A stretch of DNA of 63,341 nt, filler included, from Reclinomonas americana ATCC 50394 (taxonomy: Eukaryota): NCBI GenBank assembly GCA_048213135.1. It is 6 parts of 5 records of this genome, joined end to end, with 100 filler letters (N's around TTAATTAATTAA, not from the genome) between each part and the next. Parts side by side here need not be neighbours in the genome. Positions count along the whole stretch, not along the records: positions 27,091 to 52,565 come from PS015465.1; 5 more parts are not named here. One strand, 5' to 3'. Below, one piece after another: positions 14,310 through 46,648 of the stretch (positions within the stretch are counted from its first letter, which is position 1; each line of letters begins with the position of its first letter). The notes below the pieces were generated by a model that saw only the letters and a list, made by a program, of their open reading frames with translations, was not told the origin of the DNA and made no database searches. The position numbers and the translations under genes are program-made.

Positions 14310-17300
14310 TCAGGCGGCAAACAGGCTAATTATTATGGCGATCGCCACGGTGGTGAGCCACCTGGGGTCGAGCGCTCGTATCGACCAGCCAGCATCTGTG
14401 CGTACATGGGTGCGAGTGAGCTTCAAGTCGACGCGACACGGGCGGAGTGGAACGCAACTGCTGGTGGTGGCCACGCGCAGGTTCTGGCTCGGTATGCTCT
14501 GCCCGAAGCCATTGATAGCACGAACATTGACAATGTACGAACTGCCAGGCGCCTTGTCACTGTACCATGCAATGACAGTAAGCGACAACTTGACAATCGT
14601 CGGCAACACACACACAACCACAAAAGAGTACGCAACCCGACGGTGATTCTCTGCGCCGTCACGACTTCGTACGTGCGCGGCTCCTCGGTGCCATCCTCCC
14701 TCATCACCGTCACAATGTACTTGGTCACGCTGCCGAGACCGGTATATTGTGGTGGCGTCCACGACACCGTAAAGGTCGACGTGGTGGCACTCTCGGTCAC
14801 GAGCGAAGACGGAGCCGCCGGCTCCGCAGCTGCGCACACAGGTGCACTTGTCAGTGAATCGACACGCACATGCAATCTAAAAAAAAAACGCGTCAACTGT
14901 GCGCAACTCATGGTCGACTGTGTGATGGCCGTGCTGAGGATACTGTACGACGAACTCTTGACGGCGAGCACCTGCAGACACAAGCACGGTGAGCGCGCAC
15001 ATCAACGCACTACATATACAAAGGAGCGACGTCGACTCACTTGGAACGTGTATGTCGACTGCGGTTTGAGGTTCTTCACAATGCCACACGGGGAGATGCC
15101 ATTGGCCGTGGCCACACTGCCGAGTGGGCCCGCGTCCAGGAATGCCGTGTCGCCCGGTCGGTACACTTGCCGCATGTACTTGGCGTAGTACACAATGCGA
15201 TACGAGTCGACAGTGGCGGAATCGGGACCCGTCCAGCCAATGGCCACCACATCGCCACCGTAGCCCTTGATTCTCACACCTTGCACTTGTGCCGGCGCTG
15301 CGATGTGAATGCAAAGTGAGAAGACAGGGAGACACACAATAGCCGAAGCGAAACAAACGCACCGTCTTGCAGAGTTGTCGCCTGCTGGAAAAACGCCGAG
15401 CTTTCCTCGCCCCAGCCGACAATGTTGAAGGCGGCCACAGAGAATCGGTACACGGCACCCGGTCGCACCGACACGCTGGCGTTCAGTTGTGTTGCCGTGG
15501 TGCTGACCGGCTGTGGCGAATCGCCCTCAAAGACCTGCGTGCTGACGCGATAGGCCGTGATGCTGCTGGTCCCGATACTCGTCGGTGCCGACCATCGCAC
15601 CGCCAGGGTGGTCATTGTCGGCGCAAAATCTGCCTGCACGTTCACAGGCCGGCCAGGAACTTGCCCTGTTGTGTAACAAAAAAAAATGAGTGGATGAAAC
15701 ATAAATGCACCCCACGACATGCTCAGCGCTTGCACAACAAACCTGTGGTGACTGGATTGCCGTTCAGCGACGTTGAATCCAGTGCAAACTGCGACGGTCG
15801 CGGCGAGACACCGGCGTTGTTCGCCGCTCGAATCTGGAACGAGAAGAAGAATGAGCACGCACTCTCTCCCCTAAAAAGCTCCGCTCCTCCACGCCAACGC
15901 ACGTCAATGTAATACGCCGTCCTGGCTGACAGATCCGACAGCGTGATATTCGTGTACGAGGTGGTGATGGTGGTCGCATTCACCAATTGCTCCGCACGAT
16001 ACATGACGTTGTAGATGGTGATGGGGCCGCCGCCTCCTGTTTCCACCGGCGGATCCCACGTGAGTCGCAGCCTGTCAGCGGTCTTTGCAAAGAGCACTGA
16101 GCGCACGTTGCGCACGTTGCCGGGCACTGCGGCGGCGATGGTGGTGTGAATCTACAGACGTCCACAGACACACATACACACACACATGACGGCAGGGACA
16201 ACAGCTCTCACCAACAATCGGCGACGTGGTCGTCAACGTAATCACCGTGCCATCCCAACCCGTGGAGTACCCGTTGGTGGCTTGCACCTTGAACTGGTAC
16301 TTGGTGTTGCTAAACAAGTTGCTAAACGTCACCGTGCTCACCGACTCAAACTTGGTGGCCGGCGTCGACGACACCTCCAGCGTCTCCCAAATGGTCTCGT
16401 TCACCAGCCGACCGCGCACCACCTCGTACGCGTAGAAACCCGTGTCAAGTGGATACTGAGAGCCCGGCGACGCCGTCGACGACGACTGGATGTTGAACAC
16501 TGCGGTTCCGCTGGTGGTCGCCGCGCTGATTACCACGGGTGCCGGATATGGACCTGCAGCAACAACAGCATGTGAGTGAACAAGTTGGGGCACGCGGCGT
16601 GTGTACGTGGCGCACACTCACCGGCCACTGAATTGGTTGTGAATGTTGTGGCGAGCGACTGCGGGCTCGACTGCAAGCGATTGTTGACCAGGTTGGCCGC
16701 AATCAGCGACACCGAGTACCGGGTGTTCGGCACGAGGCCCGAAACAGTGCCAGAGCGATTCGTTGCGCCAGTGAAGACGGTGATCGAGTCACAGCCGTTT
16801 GAAGAGATAACAATGCGCCACTCTGTGATGAACGTGGCGTCGCCAACCAGTTGTGGATCCGTCCACGAGAGTGCCACCCACACATCCGACACACGGACCA
16901 CGGTTGGCGTTGGTGGCGCCGACGGAGCACTGCCGCTGCTGGCCGTTGTCACCGTTGTGATGCTGGTGGGAATGCTCTGCCCGATAGAGTTGATGGCAAA
17001 CACCCGGATAACATACAGCGTGTTGCTCTGCAGTGCCGTCACCGTGTACGTAGTGGGCGACAGGAATCCGCCCACCGGCGCCTGGAACGACGATCCACCC
17101 GTTGATGTTTCGACAACGAAGCCGGGGCTGAGCAGCGCGGTGCCACCGTACGTCACCGGTTCCTTCCACGACACGGTGAATGTCGTCGGTTGCACATTGT
17201 AAATGGTCACACCGAATGGGGAATCGGGGACGGCGCCTGTGAATGAGAGAGAGAGAGGAAAATGAGCGACATTGCAAGAAGATCACGCACACACGCGCAA

Positions 17301-19628
17301 AGTGGTGCCAACGAAACTCGGCGACGGCAACGTGATGCTGATGGATGAGCTGAATGAGCCGAACCCAAACTCGTTGACGGCGCGAATCTTGTACGAAGGA
17401 GAGTGAGCCAGCGTGGTCTCACGATCGGTGCACGCAACAAGTTCAGTTACCTTGACATCGACAGTGCGACCGCCGACCATATTTGTCACGTCCATGCGCA
17501 TGGGCAGGTCGTTTGTCAGGCCCGTGGACGCGTCAGTGGTAGACAGTGAGACCACCGACTGGCGAGTGAACTCGGCGAAATTGGCGGTGCCGGTGCGGTA
17601 CCAGAACGAGTAGGACGAGATGGTGCCGCCGCCCATGACCACTGGCCGATTGAACAGAACGGAGAACGTGGAGAACGACACGCGAGAAGCCACGAGGTCC
17701 GTGGGCGCATTCGGCAGCGAGGCTGTGGGCGAGTACAAATGAGCATGGACTGGTATGCACAGCGATGACACCATCACCACGAACCGTCCGTCGGCGTGGT
17801 GACAATCATGGTCTGGCGCGAGCCCACACCGAATGCCGTGATCGCAGACACCGCCAGTTCGTAGGCGGTGCCGGGAGCCAGATTGCTGACGAGCACCTGG
17901 CCGCCGGTCGCGGTGACAGTCGGAGCAATACTGACCTCCACTGATTCTGCGCCGCTGGTCACGAGCCGATACCACGCCGTGTAGCTGCTGACCGTCGGTG
18001 TGCCGAGTGTCACCGGCTCCGTCCACAAGAACAGGAGACTCTTGGTGGTGAGCTGCTGCACGTTCAGCGCGGTCGGAAAACCAGCCAGGGAGACTGTGCC
18101 GTGGGGGTGAGCGAGAAGCAAGCGGACGGCGGTCACGAAATACACACGACGCAAACCTGCAGGAACTGTCGCAATCACGAGGGGCGCACTGCCCGGTCCA
18201 AAGTTCGTCGGTTGTGCGTTTCTCGAGTACACCTGGCGAACGAGATCACAGTGAGCGAGTCATGGACAAACAAGAGATTCAAAGGCCAAACAAAAAGGGC
18301 AAGCAACGCACTCGAATGCTGTACGCGGTGTTTGCGCTCGGCAGCGTGATCACTGCCGTGTTCTCGTACGTGGTGGCATCGATGGTGCCGACAACGGTGA
18401 TGCTCGCCGCAATCTCGCGAGTGCCTGCCGTGCTCTGGTTCTGGAATCGCACCTCGTAGAACGGCGAGGTGAGGCCTCCTTGACCGACCAGCAGCGGAGC
18501 AGTCCACGTGAGCTCGATCGAGTTGGACGCGATGCGTCGACTGCTGGTAATTGATGCGGCGGCAGAAGGCACGCCACCAGCCGGCGTGGTCGAGAACGAG
18601 CCGACGTTGGCATCGACACCGGAGCCAGCACCCAGAGTTTGCGCGCGCGCCTGGCACGCAATACAGTTGGACCCACTGACGACTGACTTGGGAGGGCGAC
18701 AAAAAGAAAGACAACGCAACGACCACAGAAAACGACGAGTTCGCAGCGAATCGACACCCCGACACGCCAATGGCGTACCCGCCCGGCACAGTCGCGGTGC
18801 TCGTGACTGCGCAGTCGTCCATGTACCGCTCGCCGGCTCGACTGATCGAAATCGAGTATCGTGTACTGGTGAACGCCGACCCAATCACTACCGGGTCCTG
18901 AATAAACACGGTCACCGACACGTCGGTGATGAAGCGGAAGGAGATCTTTGGTGGCGATGAACGAGCTACAACAAAAAAACCGCAAACCACCACCCAATGT
19001 CAGATGCTGGCGAAGCACGCTCCTCAACACAACACACATACCGACGGCTGTGCGAATCGAGCTGATTACGGTGGACTGGCCGTTTGTGTTGCTGCCGCCG
19101 TCGACCACCTGGTAAATCTGCGAGTCGAGAGTACGCGTGAGCGCAAGGCGGTGATAAAGGAACCGCGCAGAGCACAGCTAGTCACCGTCACGTCGTACAG
19201 TGTGTCACTGAGGAGACCAACGAGTGCGAATCGAGGCTGGGCGCCAAATGGCTGAATGAGATTACCACTGGCGGTCGTGGGCGGATCCGTGCTTCCTGAT
19301 TCTCGATACAAAACCTGTGCGACGACGCACGGCAAAGCATGTGAGAGACGAGCGCGGAGAGGCACGAAAGAAGAGAGCGGAGACGGACCATGTAGTAGGG
19401 CGCCACAGGCTTGCCCCCACCGGTGGACGTCGGCAACTTCCACATCACAGTGAAGCCGCTGTCTGTCACGTCATATACCGACGGCGACGCCAGGACCAAT
19501 GCTGGCGGCTGCAAGGTGGTGAGCGGGATATTGGTCGGCGCAGTGCTGGCGCCCGTCGCCGCCGATGTGCCGGCGGTGTCTTGTGGGGTGACCTACGGCG
19601 ATGATGATGATGAGTGAGAAATCGGGAG

Positions 19629-19676
<48 letters not shown>

Positions 19677-21921
19677 CACTTGCACCACTGCAGAGCTGCC
19701 GGCGACAAATGTCGTGGACTTGATGCGCACGGTAAATGTCTGCGTGGTCAGAAAGGCGGGCTCGGTGGTGGTAAACGTGCCATCTTGCAGCAGGAACTCG
19801 ATGGTGGGCGCCACGGGCACCGACGTGCCGTACAGGTAAGCGTACGACTTGATGCCGTTGATACCGCACAGCACAGGCCGTGTCACGAACAACGTCACAA
19901 AGCCGACACCTTGCGAGACAATCACGGGCGCTACCGTGGAAGCCGACGGGCGAGTCTGCCGTGCAGTTTTCCGTGGTTAGGTGCGCTTCTCTGCTACGAC
20001 TGGAAAAAGATAAATAGAGTACGCACCTGGGCCACGGAAAAGTCCACAGCCACTGCGCCGCAGGTGACGCTGGTGGCCGACAAGCGTGTCGACGACACCT
20101 GGGCGCGCACCGTCGGTCTGCACGACGACGGTCCATTGAGGCCAGTGACAATGTTGGTGATGGTGACCTGGGTCACACTGGCGGTGCTGGCGTCGGAAGC
20201 AAACGAGATGGTCGGTGCTGTGCCTCCCAAGACAGTGCACGACGACAAGTCGATCTTGTAGGGCTCGGAGGTGGACAGCTGGGCACCAAGAATCGTGGGC
20301 CGCGTGATTCGCAGCACCATGGACGACGTCAGTCCGCCCGTCCACGTGCGCACATCCTCCATGGCGCACACAGGCACCGGCCCAGGCGCTGCGACGCAAG
20401 AGAGTGAGATACTATTAAAGGGAGAAGGAGGAGGGCGGGTGGTGTGTAACGAGACTCACCTTGCGAGGCTGTGGTGGTTGCCGCGGTGGCGGTCGACGGA
20501 TACAACACTGGCGATGTCGTCCACGGACCGGCGCCGACCTCGTTGATTGCACAGATGCGAAACAAGTAGGAGACGTCGGGATCCAAGTTCGAGGCCACCA
20601 CAGTGCCGCCCGTGACGAGACCCGTGACCGGGTCGGTGTACAAGGACGTGGCGGTACCAATGCCGCGGAACTGACCGATTTGCGTCGACGCCATCTCCAC
20701 TCCGTAGTACGGGCCAATCAGCGGTCGACCGATACGAATGGGAGCCGACCACGTCAAGCGCACCGACGTCGACGTGATATCAGAGAACACCACAGACGCG
20801 AGCGACGGCGGATCGGGTGTCATGCCTGGCAGAAGAAGAAGTACAAGTACAAGAATTAGACAAACGCACTCACATGTGCTGCGCTCTCCTCTCACGGCAC
20901 AAATGTGACGCACCCGAGCTGGCTGTGGTCACCTGAAGCGAGAAGCTCCACGTGCCATATCCCCACGAGTTGCGTGCACGCACGCGGAACTCGTAGCGCG
21001 TCGATGGCGTCAGATTGGCCACCGTGGCCTGCATGTCGCCCGCACCGCCGGTAAAGTTATCCGACGACAGCGTGCTCGACGACCACGAGTTGTCCTTGGT
21101 GGAGCGCTGCTGCATGACGTAGAACGGCGACACCAGCAGATTGTTGCCCGCGGTCGCCGCCGCTCCAAACAATTGCGGGGCGGTCCACGTGAGAACCACG
21201 CTGCGCGCCAGAATGTACTTGACTTGCAAGGCCGACGGTGCACCAGGTGTGGCTGCACGGCGAGGTGAGCGACGTGAAAGGAGGAAAGAAAGAGAGAGAG
21301 AGACAATGAGAAGAGCGACTCACCAGCAGTGGGATTCTGGACCTCGACAAACGGCGACAGCGGGCCTCGACCGTACAAGTTGACGGCATACACAGCAAAT
21401 CTGTACGTGACGCCCTGCACCAGCGAGTTGCTAAAGGCCGTCAGTGTAATGGCCGTCGTGCTGCTGCTGCCCAGCAGGGTGTCGGTCTTGCGCAGCACGC
21501 CATTCTCCGTAATCTGCACGCCATAGTCGGTGATGGCCGCGTTGCCCGAGTTGAGCGGACTGCTCCACAGTGCGTGTGAGATGAGAGAGTGTGTGTGTGC
21601 GTGGGCAGAGAGAGAGAGCGACGCAACGGGTCCCACACGAGCGCAATCTGATTGTCGGACTCGACTGAGAGGAACTGCGAGGCACCAATGGCCAGAGTCG
21701 CGCGCAAGTTGAGCGGTGCCGCGGGTGACCCATCAGCCACGCTATTGCTCGTCACCACAGTGGTCACAGTGGACGCGCCACTCACACACAGTGCACACAG
21801 CAACAACAGCAGCAGCACCGCAGCGAGAGGCCGCACTGTGTGAAAGAGAGAGAGTCAGACATGTGAAAGAGGAGAGCAAGAGAGAGAGAGACAGTCATCA
21901 CGCACCACGCGGTGTCCTCAT
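14310..21921 (-). CDS. Large secreted, probably GPI-anchored fibronectin type III repeat protein (~15 FN3 domains)
   Basis: Signal peptide MRTPR|VRPLAAVLLLLLLCALCVSG. Repeated PxxP..V.W..P....Y....L.P.T.Y.F.V.A.N..G motifs across many GT-AG-separated exons. C-terminus is TTSNAGWS...WLTTVAIAIIISLFAA-stop with no cytoplasmic tail. Confidence 0.85.
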
Positions 21922-24799: not shown

Positions 24800-24872
24800 G
24801 CCTCGTTAGCTCAATCGGTAGAGCATCAGACTTTTAATCTGAGGGTTGGGGGTTCGAGTCCCCCACGTGGCG
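24800..24872 (+). tRNA. tRNA-Lys(UUU)
   Basis: 73-nt cloverleaf GCCTCGT TA GCTC AATCGGTA GAGC A TCAGA CTTTTAA TCTGA GGGTT GGGGG TTCGAGT CCCCC ACGTGGC G. Anticodon TTT, intact A and B boxes, U4:U69 mismatch. Confidence 0.95.
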
Positions 24873-34443: not shown

Positions 34444-37400
34444 ATGGAGGTGGACGCCGACCTCTTCTCCTATGATCGCCTGGGATCGGCCTCGAGCATG
34501 CGGCACTCCTCGGGCTCTCGCATCGGCACCTCCTCCTTGTCTTCCTCTTCCTCCTCCTCCACTGCGGCTGCTGCTGCTGCCTCCTCTTCATTAGCCTCCT
34601 CGTCAGCGCGCGATGCACGTGCAGTCACCGTGACACTCGACGGTCAAAAGGTGGACATCCACGCTGATGAGCTNNNNNNNNNNNNNNNNNNNNNNNNNNN
34701 NNNNNNNNNNNNNNNNNNNNNNNNNNNNNNNNNNNNNNNNNNNNNNNNNNNNNNNNNNNNNNNNNNNNNNNNNNNNNNNNNNNNNNNNNNNNNNNNNNNN
34801 NNNNNNNNNNNNNNNNNNNNNNNNNNNNNNNNNNNNNNNNNNNNNNNNNNNNNNNNNNNNNNNNNNNNNNNNNNNNNNNNNNNNNNNNNNNNNNNNNNNN
34901 NNNNNNNNNNNNNNNNNNNNNNNNNNNNNNNNNNNNNNNNNNNNNNNNNNNNNNNNNNNNNNNNNNNNNNNNNNNNNNNNNNNNNNNNNNNNNNNNNNNN
35001 NGGAAACATCGACAGCACCTGTCCCAAGCGAGCGGGAATGTACAGGTCGTCGCCCTGCTGTGCGCTGAGAAACTGCGACTTGGCACGCTTGTACTTTTCC
35101 TCCAAGTAGTACTCGAGACCTGGTCAGGTGAGGGTCAAAAAAACAAAACGATGATGGTGGTGGTAATGATGGGCGTGGCAACGCACCAAGACCGACCCAG
35201 TACATGGGCGGCAGCGAGTTCCTCGTCGGCAGCTGATTGTAGCAGTCGCGCGCCTTCTCCAAAAACGCATTGCGTTTCGTGTCGTCGGCTTCTGCGCCAG
35301 CCTGCTCGACGTAGAACGCCGCCAGCGTGTTGACAATGTTGAACTGATCGGCAGGCCGATCGAGATGATCGTCGGTGTTGAAGGTGGTCTTGCGCGCCGT
35401 CTCTAGAATCTCCACAAACTTGCTCGTGTCGCCGAGCGTGTAGTACGCCAGCGCGTAGTTGAGCCAGATGGGCAACGGAGCGAGGTTCTCCGTCAGCAGC
35501 ACAGTGACCTCGCGAGCGGTCTCCGGCAGCGACAACTGCAACTCCTGCGCAGCGTCAAACGCCGCTGCAATGATGCGGTTGCAGGCGTCATCTCGATTGC
35601 TGCGGTACAGCGTGCCCTACACACACACACACACACACACGCGAGACGAGGTGAGCGGGGGCAGAGGCAGAGAGAGGGAAGAGAGACAACAACTGAACTG
35701 CAAAGCGGATCCAAATGCGCGGTGGCAGCGGGTACCGATGCAACAGGTCGGTGAGCTGATCACACACACGATCGTTGGGGATGTCGCCTGGTGGTGGCAC
35801 GCGGTTGAGTCACTCACACACACACACTCTCTCTCACTGAGTCACACGCAACGAGTGCAATACGCGGCCGCCTTCTCAAGAATGATCTGCACGTTGCTCA
35901 GCGTGCCGTACTTGGGGTTGTTGCCATACATGCACTGCAGAAAGAACAACAACAACAACCACAGGAGAGTGTCACAGAGGTGCAAGTGCAGCCTCGACAT
36001 GGCGCGCACACACACACACACCGCCAGTGTGACAAAGGCCTCAAGTGGGCAGGCGTTTGCCGCAAACATATCCACCAGCTCGCCTGCGTCTTCCACCNNN
36101 NNNNNNNNNNNNNNNNNNNNNNNNNNNNNNNNNNNNNNNNNNNNNNNNNNNNNNNNNNNNNNNNNNNNNNNNNNNNNNNNNNNNNNNNNNNNNNNNNNNN
36201 NNNNNNNNNNNNNNNNNNNNNNNNNNNNNNNNNNNNNNNNNNNNNNNNNNNNNNNNNNNNNNNNNNNNNNNNNNNNNNNNNNNNNNNNNNNNNNNNNNNN
36301 NNNNNNNNNNNNNNNNNNNNNNNNNNNNNNNNNNNNNNNNNNNNNNNNNNNNNNNNNNNNNNNNNNNNNNNNNNNNNNNNNNNNNNNNNNNNNNNNNNNN
36401 NNNNNNNNNNNNNNNNNNNNNNNNNNNNNNNNNNNNNNNNNNNNNNNNNNNNNNNNNNNNNNNNNNNNNNNNNNNNNNNNNNNNNNNNNNNNNNNNNNNN
36501 NNNNNNNNNNNNNNNNNNNNNNNNNNNNNNNNTGCGCCTCTTCACATTGCGCATCCCCTCATCTTTCTCCTCCAGGCTCTCGTGCACTTTACCGAGGGCG
36601 AGTACGACAAGGCGTTTGAGATGTACAAGGAGGCGTTGCGGCTGAACCCGACGGTGCCCGCGAATGTTCGTCTCGGTCTCGGCTACTGCTACTTCCACCA
36701 GAAGCGTGTGGATCGAGCACGCGACTGCTTTGACCGAGTGCTCGCCCTCGACGAGCAGAGTGTGGAGGCGCGTGTGGGCCTGGCGGTGTGCGAGCTGCAG
36801 GACGACAAGCCAGATCGACTCGATCGCGCCCTGAACTTGATTCGCGAAGCGTACCAGCTGAATGGCGATCATTCTGTGGTGCTCAACTACGTGGCCGACC
36901 ACTTGTTCTTCCTCGGGCGTGTCGCAGAGGTTTTGCGTGGAGTGTGGTTCTTATTGCTGTTGCGACTGCGAGCTAAGTATGTGTGTTTGTGTGCAGGCGC
37001 GGCAACTCGCCGAAGTCGCCCTGCACAACACCCGAGTGGTGGAGGTGCAGGCCATGAGCCACTTCATTCTCGCCAAAGTGGCGCACTTGCACAGCGATTT
37101 CGACACTGCCTTTGTACACTATCGCCAGGCGGTCGACAAGTCCAACACGTTTTCACTGGCGCTCTTTGGCCTCGGTCAGATCTACCTGTACCGTGGTGAC
37201 GAAAACAAGGCGTTGGAGCAGTTTGAGAAGGTGCTCGATGCCTATCCCAACAACTACGAGACGCTGAAGGTCCGAACCGGAGACGGCGACAACGAGTGTG
37301 TGTGTGTGAATATGGGGGAAACTTATTACTTGTTGCAGATTCTCGGTTCGCTGTACATGAAGCTCGGACGTGAGGCGGAGGCGTTACAGGTGGTGCAGAA

Positions 37401-40400
37401 GCTCACCTCGGTGGTCACCGACGACCTCGACGGGTGGGTCATGCAGGGGCAACTGTTGGAGCGCGTGAAGCCGAAGACCGCACTGGCTGGTTTGTGTCGA
37501 TGATGCGTAATTCTGCGACCGATTGTGGTTGTGACTGTGACGCCTCCTCAGCATACGAACGCGCCGTGCGTATTGCACGAGACCGGAAATTGGGTTTGAC
37601 TCCCGAAGTGTGGAACAACATTGGCTGCCTGCAGCGCTCATTAGGTCTGATTGCGCTTCTCTTGATATGTGCGTTTGTGTCGCGGAGGGACTCACCTGCT
37701 GTCTTCCCTTTCCAGCGCTGCGCTCCGATTCGGACGCGCAGCACTTCCAGTTTGTGCACCACGATGTGGGCGATGTAGACGATGAGCACATCAACTCGAG
37801 CATGTCGCTGTTGGACCATGCAGAGCGCTCGCATCGTACGGCTCTCCAGTTGACCCTGCGTGCTGCTGATGAAGTGAAGCAGCTCATCGACACCGTCAAC
37901 GAGGCCAGTGACGCCGCTCTCGCTTCGCTGCCCGACATTAATGCTCTAGCGGCCACGCAGGATCGCCTCAAGGAGATGGAAGTTGTGTGTGTGGAGGAGC
38001 TCTCTGCGTTATTTGACGGAGCATGAGACTCATTTTGGCTCTCGCGCACCACAGATCACCATTCGCTACAATATGGCACGACTGATGGAGGACAAGCACC
38101 GCGCCGACGAGGCGCGCGAGATGTATCTGGAGCTGCTGAAGAGCCACCCGTGCTACCTGGACGGTGAGATGCGCGATGTGCTTTATCCGTAGCTAGTCGT
38201 TTCACTCTTTTTTCTCTGGCACAGCATACCTGCGGCTCGGCATCATGGCACGTGACACGGGCAATCACCGGATGGCTGGTCGGTGGTTCTCTGTAGCAGC
38301 ATGTGCGTCGTATTTCCTCCTCTGCAGCACGCGGTCGTTCCACTCACGACTTGCAATGATCCACAGCTATTGCCAAGGACAATCCCGATGTACGCTCCCT
38401 GCAGGGCCAGTTGCACATGATGCGCGAAGAGTGGAGCCTGGCGCAGGGTCACTTTGAGGACATTCTCAACGGCATGAACCAGCGCGACATGATGGCCCTG
38501 CTGTCGCTTGGCAAGATCTTTTACGAGAACTCGTGCATCGATGTGCTCAAGAAGAAGGTCTGTAACTGACAACAATCATCGGTTGCTGCGTGATGCGAGT
38601 GTGTTGCTCATCACTTGGTGGATGCGGTGCCGCAGCACGAGAAATACCGTGCACACGCCGTCAAGTTCTTTGATCGGGCGCTCCTTGTGGATCCCGACAA
38701 TGTGTACGCCGCCAATGCGCTCGGTGTGCTGTTGGCCGACGGTGGCTTCCTGGACGACGCACGTGAGATCTTCCAGAAGGTTTGCTGGAGAGTGTACTCC
38801 ATAGCGCTGTTTGTGTGTTGTTGTTTTGACACGAGACACGCACACAGGTGCGCGAGGGCGGCAAGATCATCCCCGAGGTGCTGCTGAATCTGGCGCACAT
38901 TGACGTGTCGTACAAGCGGTACGCCGACGCCATCAAGTTGGTACGCTACTGCTCTATTCCCCCTCCTTTCCTCGAATCCGGTTGCAACTTATCTGTTGTG
39001 GCAGTACGAGACATGCTTGAAGGTATCGCACAACTCGGACGTGGAAATCTTGAAGTACTTGGCCCGCGCCCACTACTGTGCCGGTCACCTGGAAACGGCG
39101 CTGTCGACGCTGCAAAAGGTCGCCCACCTGCGACCGGAGGACCTGCAGACGTGGTTCGACATTGCACTGATCCAGGAGCAAATGTGTGTGGACAAGGTGC
39201 GCTCGATCATCACCAGCGCCGCAACCGTCATCAAGATCCGCGACATTATGACCTCGGCACACCAGTTGCGTTTGGTTTTTCCCCTTTGCTCCGCGTCGCC
39301 AGCATCTCTGATAGGTGTGAATGGCCGTGGGGCGCAGCATCTTCCGCTTTGTGGAACGCAAGGCGGAGGAGTTGAAGGACAATCCGAGTCGCGACGCCGC
39401 GGTGGTGGGTGCGTACTGGACCGAACGTCACACGTCGTTGCATCAGCTGGCGAAGAACAAGTCGCACGAATGTGCCGAGTGGCGCGGCAAGTTGGAGAAA
39501 ATGGTGGACTCGGTGCGTCGACAGGAGGAGGAGGCCAAGGCGCAGCGAGACTCCAAGCGCGAGGAGCTGGAAGCGCGTCTGCAGCAGATGCGAGCCCGTG
39601 AGGTTTGTGCGTCTTTATTCACCTATTTTTGTGATTTGCACTCATCATTCGCTGCAGGAGGAGGAAAAGCAGCGGCAGATTGCCGCCGAAGAGGAGATGC
39701 GACGACGAGCTGAAGCCGATCGAGAGCGCTTCCGCCAGGTGCAGAGCACGTGGAAGTCGACCATCATCAAGGATGGTGAGTGGAGGGGGTCAGTGAGACG
39801 ATTGTGTGTGTGTGTGGGCGAGATAATGACACGCGTGTCTAATGTTGCTTGCCAACACAGACGACAGCGATGGCTCTGGCGGCGGCAAGAAGAAGAAGAA
39901 GAAGAGCAGTGCAGGTGGAGCTCCGCGAGCGCGAGGCTCGGCCGGTGGCGGTGGTGGTGGCAAGAAGGCGCCACGCAAGCGCAAGGTGGACGAAGAGGAG
40001 GAGGAAGAAGAGGAAGAGGAGGAAGACGACGGTCAGATTGACTGGCGACACGGCTCCAAGAAGGCCAAGGGCAAGAAGAAGAAGGCGGCCGCCAAGTCGG
40101 CCGACAAGAAAAAGAAGAAGAAGAAGAGCCGAGCGGCCAGGTGAGTGGATGGGAGGGTGGGATGGAGAGCGATTTCCCTGCATTCTCACCGTCAACGCAA
40201 CAGCGATGAGGAGGACGAGGAGGAGGAGGAAGGAGACGAGGACATGAGTGAGGAGGCCGAGGACTCGGGCGGCAGCGACTCGGACAGCCCGAAGAAGCGC
40301 AAGAACAAGGTTGGCAAGCGCAAGATTCGCGGCAAGCGACCACGCGACGAGGCCGACGAGGTCGAGACCGAGGACAGGCTGTCGGATGTGGGCGAGGAGG

Positions 40401-40665
40401 AATCCACACCGGCGGTGAAGCGACGCAAGGTGCTCGATGCCGAGGACGAAGACGACGATTTGTTTGGCTCTGGCGACGACGACGACGCATCCAAGCCGGC
40501 AGCAAGCACAACAGCAGCCTCAGCAGCAGCAGCAGCAGCCGACGACGATCTCTTTGGTGGCGGAAGCGAAGGTTTGCTGACGCCATCCCCGTGTCACCGC
40601 GCACTCCACCTCCTAACACGCTCCCTCGGTGTGCAGATGAAATGGCTGTCGACGCTGACGCATGA
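34444..40665 (+). CDS. CTR9: CTR9 (PAF1 complex TPR subunit); segment 35002-36097 is present in inverted orientation
   Basis: [86 protein letters not shown], then a Lys-rich/acidic tail. The N-terminal TPR exons read on the minus strand between two gaps. Confidence 0.9.
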
Positions 40666-40799
40666 GGGCGCCAAGGAAGATTGAGGAAAAGGAAAATGAT
40701 AAGCGATTGAATCTATGTTGGTATTCTCTCTCTTCACTGCACACAGACAGACACAGAGAAGAGAGGGGTGCGTGCGTGCGTACGTGCACCGCTGCGTTA

Positions 40800-41782: not shown

Positions 41783-44700
41783 ATGTTTAGCCCACGCCGC
41801 GCTGGTCGCAATGAGGGCGTGTTTGAGGAGTTTGAGCAGTTGCAAGTGGAGATTGGTAATGATGGCGGCCCGGCGCCTGCTGGAGGAAGCGCGCAAGCCG
41901 ACAGTGATGCAGTTGCGTTTGCGTTACAAAATGCGCGCGTTCGTGTGTGTGTCTCCCTCTCCGCTCACCACCGCGTGCGCAGGATGGAAGCCGTGAGAAG
42001 GACCACTGGACGTCCACCAAGAGCATTCGTGCCTCGTGGACTCCAGAGGAGAGGACAGTGCGTCATCACACAGACACTGTATGATGACGCCTCTGTATTG
42101 ATGCTGGCGATGTGATGCAGTTGTACGAGCAAGCGGGCACGTACTTGGGTGATGCGCGTGCGAGTCGCTCACCGTTCCATTTGACCACGCCCACAGCTCT
42201 CAAGTGCGTCTCTTCTTCTTTGTATGTATGCTTGCGTCAATTCAAACTCACTTGGCATGCCACTGGCAGATGGTACAAGTTCTATCACAAGAGTTGCGAG
42301 AGAACTGCGTGTGTGTATGTGCTGCTAAATGCTTCTGAACACGGGGAGGGTTTCGGATGGGTGTGCAGTTTGGGTACAGATTGTGTTCGCAGCCGATGTG
42401 GTCGCTCTTATGGTGCTCGGCGCCTTTGAGGCCCCCGCGCCTGCCGAGCTGCCAAATTGGGTTTGTGATGTTGGAGGATGTGCCGTGTTCCTCGTACATG
42501 GCTCATTCCCTCCGGTCGATGCAGCTGGCTGCACTTCTCAAGTTCTTTTTCCTGTCAGTTCTCCTGTGCCGTGTGGTGCTCGACTACGTAACACTTGGAC
42601 GCAAGGAGTTCTTGGGGTGCGCGCCTTTCACCACGACAAGACGTATTCTCCTCCTCTGATCGTCTGTGTGCCGGCTTTGCATGAGAACAGGAGACCATGG
42701 CTCGTGGTCATGGCGGTGGCGGTGCCGTTCAACATTATCGGCTTGTTGATCTCATGGGCCATTCTTGGCGAGGGTTGGCTCTGGCTGCGCCTCTTCCGGT
42801 GTCTGTATCTCATCGAGTCATCGCACGTCACGCGTGCCACATTCATGAACTTGCTGCGAACCATCCCCGACATTCTCGACGTGCTGTTTTGCGTCGGTCT
42901 CGTGCACCTCGTGCGTTGTGGCTGCACCACTCTGCTACACAACACGACTTCCCTTCTTATGTGTGCGCGCGCAGAGCTTTGTGCTGTTTTGCATGATCTT
43001 CTTCGAGGCCAGGTGAGAGCTCTCAACTCCCATCGACTGAGTTTGCAGTCGGCTGATCACTGTATTCTTGCACGATTAGCAATCAAGGATGTCTGATGTT
43101 TGCCGGCTTTTGGGACTCCTGGTTCAACATGCTGGTGACCCTCACCACAGCGAACTTTCCAGAATATCCTTGCTGTCACCCTTGTTGTTGTTGTTGTCGA
43201 TGTTCCTCTGTTGCTGTGGTTTCCTTGACTGACGCCTCGCCGCGCTGTGTACTATCATGATGCCAGCATACGACGACAAGTGCGTCACACATTTGTGTCT
43301 GTGCCTTGTTTTGTCGCCCTGTACCGACAGGCTTTTGTTCCCGCAGCCGATGGAATGTCTTGATCTTTATCGCCTTCCTCATCATCTGCTTGTACATGTT
43401 GATGGCCCTCGGTACGCGACGCTTCCGTCACGAGCTGTCACGCTCCTGATGATCTGTCCCTAAAACAGTGTGCTTCCTTGACAGTGCTTGCGTCTGTCTA
43501 CTCGCGCTACCGTGAGCATGCAGGACGTGCCGGATCCCGCATCATCTACTGGAAGACTGCTGCGCTGTCCATGGCCTTTGATCTGCTGTGCACGGTTCGC
43601 ACAATGCCCGTCACGTCGCCGGCAAATAGCGCAAGTGCCCGGCAACACGATCAACAGGGTCAACAAGATGGTATGTAGCTGAGTTCGATGATGCGCGTGG
43701 CATGCACTCATCTCTTGTATCGGCGTTGCCCAGGCACCGAGAATGACACCACATCGCCGGAAATGACACCGGCTGCCGGTAGCAGTGCTGCTGCGCTAGT
43801 TGGAGCTGGCACGGGCGCGTCGGGTTCGGGACTCATGTCACCACAGAGTGCTGCCTCGGCCGGCGACCTGGAAGACGCACAGTCCGTGGCGCCGGTGGAG
43901 GTCATCGACTATGTTACCTTCCGTAACGCGATGATTGTTGTCCGCTCGCACTACCCGCTGGAGAAGATCGACATCACATTTAGCGCGCTCAACCGCAGCG
44001 GCAACGGCTTTTTGAATATCCTTTGTGCGCAGTGCACTTCAGTGCAAGGCAGTGTGTGCGTGCATTCGTGACTTGTTGACTCCTTAACGTGATGGCCGTG
44101 TGTACCTCGCGAGGAGTTTGCCGAGTTCCTGGAGGTGTTGAGCTACAAGGTCAAGTCGGCGTGGGAGAGCCAGACGTTCTTCGAGTGGCTCTTCCGATGC
44201 ATCTACCACACCAAGGGAAATCAGGCATTCATCCGCTTCATCAAGTCGCAGTTGCGTGCATGCGGTCAAGTTGAGCGCTGGCCGATTAAGCAGGTGGTGT
44301 TCAACCAGCTTCCCACAGGTGGTTCGACGCCATTGTCGACGTGTTCCTGGTGGCCTACACCATCAATCTGATGGTCAGTGCTCACTACGCCACATCCAAC
44401 CTGGACTATCAGTGTGGTGTCACCACCAAGGAGCCCGAGGCCATTGTACTGCAGAACATTCTCGGTGGGACTCCCATTATCTGTGTTGCGCGTTCTTTGT
44501 NNNNNNNNNNNNNNNNNNNNNNNNNNNNNNNNNNNNNNNNNNNNNNNNNNNNNNNNNNNNNNNNNNNNNNNNNNNNNNNNNNNNNNNNNNNNNNNNNNNN
44601 NNNNNNNNNNNNNNNNNNNNNNNNNNNNNNNNNNNNNNNNNNNNNNNNNNNNNNNNNNNNNNNNNNNNNNNNNNNNNNNNNNNNNNNNNNNNNNNNNNNN

Positions 44701-46648
44701 NNNNNNNNNNNNNNNNNNNNNNNNNNNNNNNNNNNNNNNNNNNNNNNNNNNNNNNNNNNNNNNNNNNNNNNNNNCGACATGCTGACAGACGCGCGTGGTG
44801 CAGAGCACGCATTCACTGCCATTTACACGTTGGAACTGTTGTTACGTCTGTATGCCACGGGATTCCGCCGAGCGGTCCGCAACCTGTGGTTCTGGTTCGT
44901 CCACACTTTCCCTCGTATCATTGCACGCACGTCCGTTCTCAGATAGTTGTTGGTGTTGTCGGTGTACAGCTTTGATTTGTTCTTGCTGACGGCCATCTAC
45001 GCTGGTACGTTTTGTGGTGCTCTTTCCACTTGTCCTCTCGCGAGCTGCTGACTGATGGTGCGTGTTTGCTGGCAGGTATTTTCGCGTCCATTTTCACAAC
45101 CGGTGCGTCCCTCTCACTCCATCTCCTTGCTATTTTACCAAACGCTGATTGCATACTTGGTCGCGTAGGTGCTACCATTCGCCGCGCCATTCAGGCCCTC
45201 CGTGTCGTCCGTCTGTTCCGCTTGCTGGTCCACGTGCCGCGGTACGTACGTCGCTCACGCATGTGATGGAAAATGTGAGAGGTGTTGATTTTCGTGTTGG
45301 TGCGCAGCTTCTACCGCATCATCTCGTCCTTTGTCAGCATTCTCACCAACCTGGGNNNNNNNNNNNNNNNNNNNNACCGTATGGCGCCGTCGTGTTTGTT
45401 GCGTCGCCTCGCTCCGCATGTGGAAATGGTGGTTTCGCGCCTCATGTCTTGTCGCAGGGTGTATACTATGCCTACGCCATTATCGGCATTGGCAGTTACG
45501 CTCACATCGTTCTCCATGTTTCTCGTCCGCTGGCTTATTAGTTAACACGCTCTTCTTTTCTGCAGTCTTTGGTGGACTGATTTACGAAGTGTGTCGCCAC
45601 AGCCACCGTCGTCTCGCTTGCACCGTCTCACCGATAGTGATCGCAGGGCAATCCGGCCCTGACGCCCGACAACCCATTCGTGCAAGCCAAGTACTTCTCG
45701 AACAACATGAATGACTTGCCGTCTGCTCTTGGTGCGTCAGGCGTCTTGCCGTTGCGTTTGCTCTTCCTATTTTGCGCACTCACTGATTTGTTTGTGTGAT
45801 CAGTTGTTCTCTTCGAGCTCCAAGTCGTACGTTTACACGTCGAGAAGAAGACTTGCCAGCGTAGTGACGTCGCTCACATCCATCCGCGTATATATAGGTC
45901 AATAACTGGCAGGTCATTGTGGCCGGCTATGTGGCCGTGACGAACCGCGCTGCACGAATCTACTTTATCATCTGGTGGCTCATCATGGTGGTGGTATTCA
46001 TCAAGTTGCGTCTCCTGCCTGCGTTCACATTACTGTTGTCATCGTCACTCAACTCTTCTGTGCGCCCTCCAGTGTGCTGATTGCCTTCATTCTCGAGGTG
46101 AGTGCTGCTGGTGTCTTTCGAAGCCGGCGAGTTGCCGTCGTTTGACTCTATGTGTGTGCGCGTGTGCAGTCGTACGGAAGAGAATACGAGAAATACGTGA
46201 CGCGCGAACGAGCTCGACTGGAGGTCGATCCCACGCTGTCGAGTGCCTCTGCACAGGACTCAATCCTCGAGCGCATCCAGTCGTCATATGCAATGCTGGC
46301 GCTTGGGCACACAGAAGGAGTCACGGGTGTCGGTGGAGATGCCACGCCTAAACGCGTACGGTGCGTACACATGTGCTCTGCAAGTTCACACACCAGCACA
46401 GCGATGAGTGCTGACCACACGCGATGCTTGCCGGCAGTCGCTTCTCGATCACGCGCAAGGGCTCCAACTCGGCCGAGTTGCTGGAGTCCGTGTCTGACAT
46501 GAAAGTGCAGTTGCGTTCTCCAGCAGGCGTGCATGCAGCTCACCGATGCTTAATTTTGTGTACTTGGCACGTACGCAGGTGCGTACCACTGGACCAGCTG
46601 CCGTCTCTGGCGCCAAAGAAGAACAGCGATCGCTCCGACACCGATTGA
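41783..46648 (+). CDS. TPCN: Two-pore channel (TPC), with two U12-type AT-AC introns
   Basis: S4-I LRLFRCLYL. Filter I LTTANFPD|IMMPAY. EF-hand-like linker NRSGNGFLTREEF. S4-II LRVVRLFRLL. Filter II LFELQVVNNWQV. S6-II NVLIAFILE-like segment. Stop TGA at 46646-46648. Confidence 0.92.
43164..43252 (+). other. U12-type (minor spliceosome) AT-AC intron 1
   Basis: 5' site ATATCCTT, branch TTCCTTGAC (43221-43229), 3' end GTAC. Removal restores TANFPD-IMMPAY. Confidence 0.93.
44016..44105 (+). other. U12-type (minor spliceosome) AT-AC intron 2
   Basis: 5' site ATATCCTTT, branch TCCTTAAC (44081-44088), 3' end GTAC. Removal restores GNGFL-T-REEFAEFL. Confidence 0.93.

Follow-up and report, generated by a model that had tools for sequence, protein, structure and literature searches.

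In a stretch of 63,341 nt from Reclinomonas americana ATCC 50394, referred to here as the window, we identified a U12-type AT-AC intron of 90 nt in phase 1 at positions 44016–44105 on the plus strand. The identification is based on its U12 splice signals and on the reading frame, which is open after removal of the intron. It lies in a two-pore channel (TPC) gene that contains a second intron of the same type, at 43164–43252. Splicing of 44016–44105 itself is nearly certain in our estimation. We also consider it probable that this is an ordinary U12-type AT-AC intron, that its pairing with the second one reflects the known clustering of minor introns, and that the two are old, independently placed introns with no special regulatory role. 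The old and neutral origin, which we infer, is the weaker step of this explanation.

The 5′ splice site ATATCCTTT (44016–44024, plus strand) agreed with the consensus at 9/9 positions; the U12 donor consensus used for scoring is printed in PMC6259924. Against RTATCCTTT, no mismatch was counted at this donor and one in the sibling intron, while the 24 U2 introns of the same gene showed 3–7. The branch site (44080–44088, plus strand) matched TTCCTTRAC at 8/9 positions, with its last A at 44087, 18 nt before the intron end, and the core motif TCCTTAAC spans 44081–44088. Its single mismatch, and the absence of any in the sibling, compare with 2–5 mismatches in the U2 introns (n = 24). U12 branch sites are expected at most 45 nt from the 3′ end (bioRxiv 10.1101/2020.10.12.336362), and those of both U12 introns of the TPC gene fall inside this limit. 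The 3′ splice site TAC (44103–44105, plus strand) is the first AC or AG past the branch site, and both U12 introns end at the first YAC located at least 8 nt past the branch A. The termini of 44016–44105 are AT and AC, and its last six bases are GTGTAC. A polypyrimidine tract was absent: of the 17 nt downstream of the branch motif, 8 were pyrimidines, with a longest run of 2. These coordinates, the length, the donor, the branch motif and the end were all as the first-pass annotation had given them.

The donor, the branch site, the compatible AT-AC ends and the missing pyrimidine tract are common to this intron and the U12-type AT-AC class as described in PMC3584512 (Turunen et al. 2013). The branch A is farther from the intron end (18 nt here and 24 nt in the sibling) than the optimum of 11–13 nt given there for U12 introns, which is not a hard limit. 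U12 introns are reported to be biased against phase 0 (PMC7367187), and phases 1 and 2 of the two introns agree with this bias. We rejected a U2-type AT-AC intron at 44016–44105, as both a U12 donor and a U12 branch site are present.

The intron splits the codon of position 9 of an EF-hand loop. The upstream exon (43734–44015, plus strand) contains a low-complexity insert, a helix and loop positions 1–8, with the loop starting at 43991. The downstream exon (44106–44250, plus strand) supplies the rest of position 9 and positions 10–13, including Glu 12 and Phe 13, followed by the linker that leads into domain II. The spliced loop, obtained in an open frame at the place and in the form that the first-pass annotation had proposed, fitted 10/11 constrained positions of the PROSITE EF-hand rule. 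The retained reading fitted 8/11 and had no fit at positions 12 and 13. The sole misfit of the spliced loop is position 1, where Asn replaces Asp, and the loop is thus not canonical. In the ESM Atlas, the last 40 codons of the upstream exon (43895–44014) resembled EF-hand clusters (0.93), which made up 10/10 of the best named hits; the shared features numbered 132–159, under the 170 typical of sure EF-hand members. Pfam detected no EF-hand in either flank of the intron or in the retained reading. Judged by its residues, the loop appears to be EF-hand-like and is a candidate calcium sensor. The corresponding motifs of mammalian TPCs are described in PMC6424560 as being without acidic calcium residues, whereas the loop here keeps Asn5, Thr9 and Glu12. 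When the upstream exon was folded as a single sequence, a hairpin (pLDDT 72, pTM 0.39) appeared in place of the expected helices; we disregarded this model, which is that of an unaligned fragment. About 80 low-complexity codons rich in Ser, Ala, Gly and Gln (43560–43880, plus strand) are inserted into the linker ahead of the EF-hand loop. If the intron were retained, an in-frame TGA (44069–44071, plus strand) would be reached 18 codons in, before the second six-transmembrane (6-TM) domain, and the predicted channel would be truncated ahead of that domain.

The TPC gene (41783–46648, plus strand) was modelled by hand from the sequence, with 26 introns placed and at least 870 codons. The number of introns is a minimum, as two N gaps conceal further ones. 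These gaps divide the model into three open segments, of 562, 100 and 210 codons, which contain no internal stops; the first donor of the model has a second candidate at 41939. Both channel halves were recognized, by an Ion_trans match at 44776–44898 and by ESM Atlas Ion_trans features at 42692–42910. The exon at 45898–46004 (plus strand), which carries the filter II asparagines, the pore helix and S6 of domain II, matched TPC structures in the PDB (TPC3, E = 4.8e-4; TPC2, E = 3.8e-3; TPC1, E = 0.15), with only 4 sequences at E ≤ 10. Filter I reads Thr-Ala-Asn (43136–43163) and filter II reads Val-Asn-Asn (45824–45906), both on the plus strand. Mammalian TPC filters are Thr-Ala in domain I and Val-Asn-Asn in domain II (PMC6424560, She et al. 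2019), and this channel has both in common with them.

In animal and plant TPC1–3, an EF-hand linker connects two 6-TM domains (PMC6424560); the predicted product of this gene has the same layout, as judged from the gene model and from searches with parts of the protein. One domain II S2 exon matched sodium channels better than TPC3. Short pieces of the channel superfamily can score in this way, and the two-domain layout with its linker decides the identity in spite of this score. On the evidence of the domain II pore exon, of Ion_trans in both halves and of the filters, the gene as predicted from sequence is a two-pore channel, which upholds the earlier identification. Further homology searches, in which individual exons or read-through frames served as queries, gave no match, in the PDB as well, or matches that were weak or unrelated; thus, neither U12 junction could be spanned by an alignment with a TPC protein. 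The filters match the sodium-selective mammalian type and not the plant type, and the EF-hand loop keeps most calcium ligands. Among the U2 introns of this gene (41912–46578, plus strand), 5/24 start with GTTGCG, all five after an exon-final A.

The sibling intron (43164–43252, plus strand) is 89 nt long and in phase 2, and matches the consensus at 8/9 donor positions and 9/9 branch site positions. It splits an Asp codon three residues past the filter I Asn. Its GTGTAC end and its nearly equal length had been noted in the first-pass annotation, and they were found here as well. We then scanned both strands of the window for an exact donor, an exact TCCTTRAC and a matching YAC or YAG located 8–26 nt past the branch A, covering introns no longer than about 250 nt in the sequence between the N gaps. 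Two matches were obtained, 44016–44105 and 43164–43252, while 60/60 windows simulated with a third-order Markov model gave none. Within this scope, the two introns are the only clear U12 introns in the window, as had been claimed. When one mismatch per motif was allowed, a third match appeared at 37977 on the minus strand; it lies antisense to a tetratricopeptide repeat (TPR) gene read on the plus strand and is at chance level, as 32/60 simulations gave at least one such match. Seven relaxed RTATCYYY sites were present on both strands, and only two of them, both canonical, were accompanied by a U12 branch site. RTATCCTY occurred 3 times against 1.18 expected, with 13/100 shuffles reaching 3, and TCCTTAAC with one mismatch occurred 13 times against 15.2 expected. 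Thus, neither the donor nor the branch motif alone exceeds chance in 63 kb.

At 89 and 90 nt, the U12 introns are longer than all others among the 26 modelled (58–77 nt, median 68.5 nt), which has a chance of 1 in 325. Their near-equal length is explained more simply as a trait of the class than as a link between the two. We rejected the copying of one from the other, since their bodies are unrelated and 1000/1000 shuffles aligned as well. An origin of both from the internal duplication of the channel was likewise rejected, as their places are not homologous; the domain II pore intron (45827–45897) is a U2 intron in phase 0 and lies some codons off. Bases −6 to −3, which are identical in the two GTGTAC ends, match in 6/276 pairs of U2 introns (about 2%). 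The common end is at best a weak, post-hoc signal in TG-rich introns, and it may reflect chance or a local preference in AT-AC ends. Folding of the two introns revealed no structure beyond that of shuffled sequences (z of 0.19 and 1.49), and a regulatory RNA structure was rejected on this basis.

Two minor introns in one gene are uncommon, as the first-pass annotation had remarked with reference to ion channels. In human, 50 genes with two minor introns and 3 with three are reported (PMC6717393, Olthof et al. 2019), so that 53 of about 714 minor-intron genes, or about 7%, have more than one. The minor-intron supplement of that paper gives two rows apiece for CACNA1A, B, C, D, E and S; like the gene described here, they are intron-rich members of the voltage-gated channel superfamily with two minor introns. 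The remark is borne out by these numbers and by the six CACNA1 genes. The CACNA1C pair reads AT-AG and GT-AG, whereas both introns here are AT-AC. Clustering of minor introns within shared genes holds for 21/21 genomes tested (PMC7367187), and genes with minor introns are intron-denser (PMC10639083). With 28 introns per gene and a U12 share of 0.36–1%, a second U12 intron is expected by chance in 5–13% of U12-bearing genes. Considering the known clustering, the intron density and this chance level, the doubling needs no special function. For a gene with at least 26 introns, the pair is most plainly accounted for by the tendency of minor introns to cluster where introns are dense, an account that the first-pass annotation leaves out.

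We looked for counterparts of these introns in other lineages. The minor-intron sheets in the supplement of PMC6717393 (771 rows for human and 723 for mouse) contained 0 rows for TPC genes, while the controls CACNA1, SCN and CATSPER gave 33, 20 and 5 rows, respectively. TPC was likewise missing from a second table, which derives from the same database and is not independent. PMC6259924 describes a conserved U12 intron of Nav and Cav genes at the start of D1S1 and mentions TPC only in a reference. The shared Nav/Cav site thus differs in place from the two introns here, of which one follows filter I and the other falls within the EF-hand linker. The suggestion in the first-pass annotation that these are ancient conserved positions is unsupported by the mammalian sheets and by the Nav/Cav comparison: the two TPC introns are neither at the known ion-channel positions nor minor introns in mammals. 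When metagenomes were scanned for U12 donors at the codon position of the sibling, 0/12 matches lay in a TPC-like frame, a weak result in a mostly prokaryotic collection. No TPC entry was found in the other supplements searched, for which there was no working positive control and two of which lack such identifiers. The literature search, which reached few subscription papers and none of the large intron databases, returned no TPC gene with minor introns, no paper joining TPCN1 with the minor spliceosome and none joining Arabidopsis At4g03560/TPC1 with a U12-type AT-AC intron.

The U2 intron at 44251–44318 (plus strand) has a GTTGCG donor and is in phase 2; the Phe with which domain II S1 starts lies two residues downstream. 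Phase 2 is also that of the U12 intron at Nav/Cav D1S1 (SCN5A c.392), which, going by the CACNA1C junction bases and the sequences of those proteins, probably lies two residues before the S1 Phe. By this comparison of positions, 44251–44318 may be the same old Nav/Cav D1S1 position converted to U2, the probability of a chance coincidence being about 2%. Another U2 intron (43412–43484, plus strand) contains a perfect U12 branch motif, TCCTTGAC, at 43475–43482, directly before its final AG. This is too near the intron end for a U12 branch site and is attributable to chance or to a relic.

In minor introns, U11 and then U6atac pair with the U12-type donor, and U12 pairs with the branch site. According to this established biochemistry, U11 and then U6atac would pair with the donor at 44016 and U12 with the branch site, and the minor spliceosome would remove 44016–44105 and restore EF-hand loop positions 9, 12 and 13. 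Retained transcripts would presumably be lost or yield half a channel. We think it very improbable that the ends are wrong, with the major spliceosome using nearby GT-AG or GC-AG sites or with an error in the model itself. In-frame alternatives of this kind exist on paper, for example 44054–44125 (72 nt), but every one of them breaks the EF-hand loop, by deleting it or by leaving intron-derived residues. Most of them also end in purine-AG, while 24/24 modelled U2 introns end in YAG, and such a reading leaves the combination of U12 signals, absent from every simulated window, unexplained. A doubled slow step kept by selection to tune TPC output, which the first-pass annotation had raised, is in our judgement improbable, though less so than wrong ends. 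U12 splicing has been measured as two- to fivefold slower and proposed to be rate-limiting (PMC3584512), retention of either U12 intron gives a premature stop, and the long branch-to-end spacing might slow splicing further. However, according to PMC7367187 the difference in rate is too slight to influence expression, the TPCN genes of mammals do without minor introns, neither intron is structured beyond chance, and the sequence holds nothing that points to regulation.

The alternative with most in its favor, although still unlikely, is that both introns are real and were gained in this lineage in a modest, AT-AC-rich expansion of minor introns, comparable to that of Blastocystis and with Physarum as the extreme. 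It is consistent with the missing TPC rows in human and mouse and with the AT-AC ends of 2/2 U12 introns in the window. Among protists, 265 minor introns are reported in Protostelium aurantium, 90 in Pelomyxa schiedti and 253 in Blastocystis, of which 196 (77%) are AT-AC (PMC10639083); these, as here, are sets from intron-rich microbial eukaryotes. The doubtful scenario that follows is a lineage gaining AT-AC minor introns as a distinct size class, which exceeds its major introns by about 20 nt and has stretched branch-to-end spacing, and of which the TPC gene took two at new places. Physarum has over 20,000 minor introns (PMC10639083; bioRxiv 10.1101/2020.10.12.336362), with abundant U12 donors and a TTTGA branch site 10–12 nt from the end (bioRxiv 10.1101/2020.10.12.336362). 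No such mass expansion was seen in the window, where the signals are canonical. Gain is also opposed by the occurrence of only two such introns in 63 kb, both in one gene, by their canonical branch sites in place of the transformed TTTGA signal, by the lack of similarity between their bodies and by the rarity of de novo creation of minor introns, which has little support outside Physarum. Because such creation is rare, we prefer old introns that were lost or converted elsewhere; in mammalian TPCN genes, counterparts of both would be missing or would have ceased to be minor. Four points count against this preferred explanation. The human and mouse lists offer no conserved counterpart; the spacings of 18 and 24 nt exceed the optimum; both introns belong to the AT-AC subtype, a minority of about 22–26% of human minor introns; and the gene model is hand-built.

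The window contains several other features. An N-myristoyltransferase gene (11650–13300, minus strand; Pfam NMT and NMT_C) looks divergent in motifs that are usually conserved, and it is perhaps a second paralog. A long run of fibronectin type III repeats (14426–21732, minus strand) belongs to an intron-rich gene. The TPR gene (36534–40700, plus strand; Pfam TPR) presumably resembles the PAF1-complex subunit CTR9; a search with it for relatives gave 2 TPR matches among 6375 candidates, neither of them informative on the lineage. A tRNA gene (24800–24872, plus strand) was the sole Rfam match.

On present evidence, 44016–44105 and its sibling are a new example of the known two-minor-intron gene and not a new mechanism, and the general picture is unchanged. 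The minor spliceosome has very probably been kept in this eukaryote, and the TPC family joins those channel families in which minor introns are known. Annotation pipelines limited to GT-AG introns will disrupt the TPC gene at the pore and at the EF-hand. If the introns were gained here, Physarum and perhaps Blastocystis would be joined by a further example of minor-intron creation, from an organism with unusual major donors (the GTTGCG class), and this would be the first TPC gene found with minor introns. Positions shared with distant TPC genes would date the intron history of the channel superfamily, while new ones would be a rare case of minor-intron gain.
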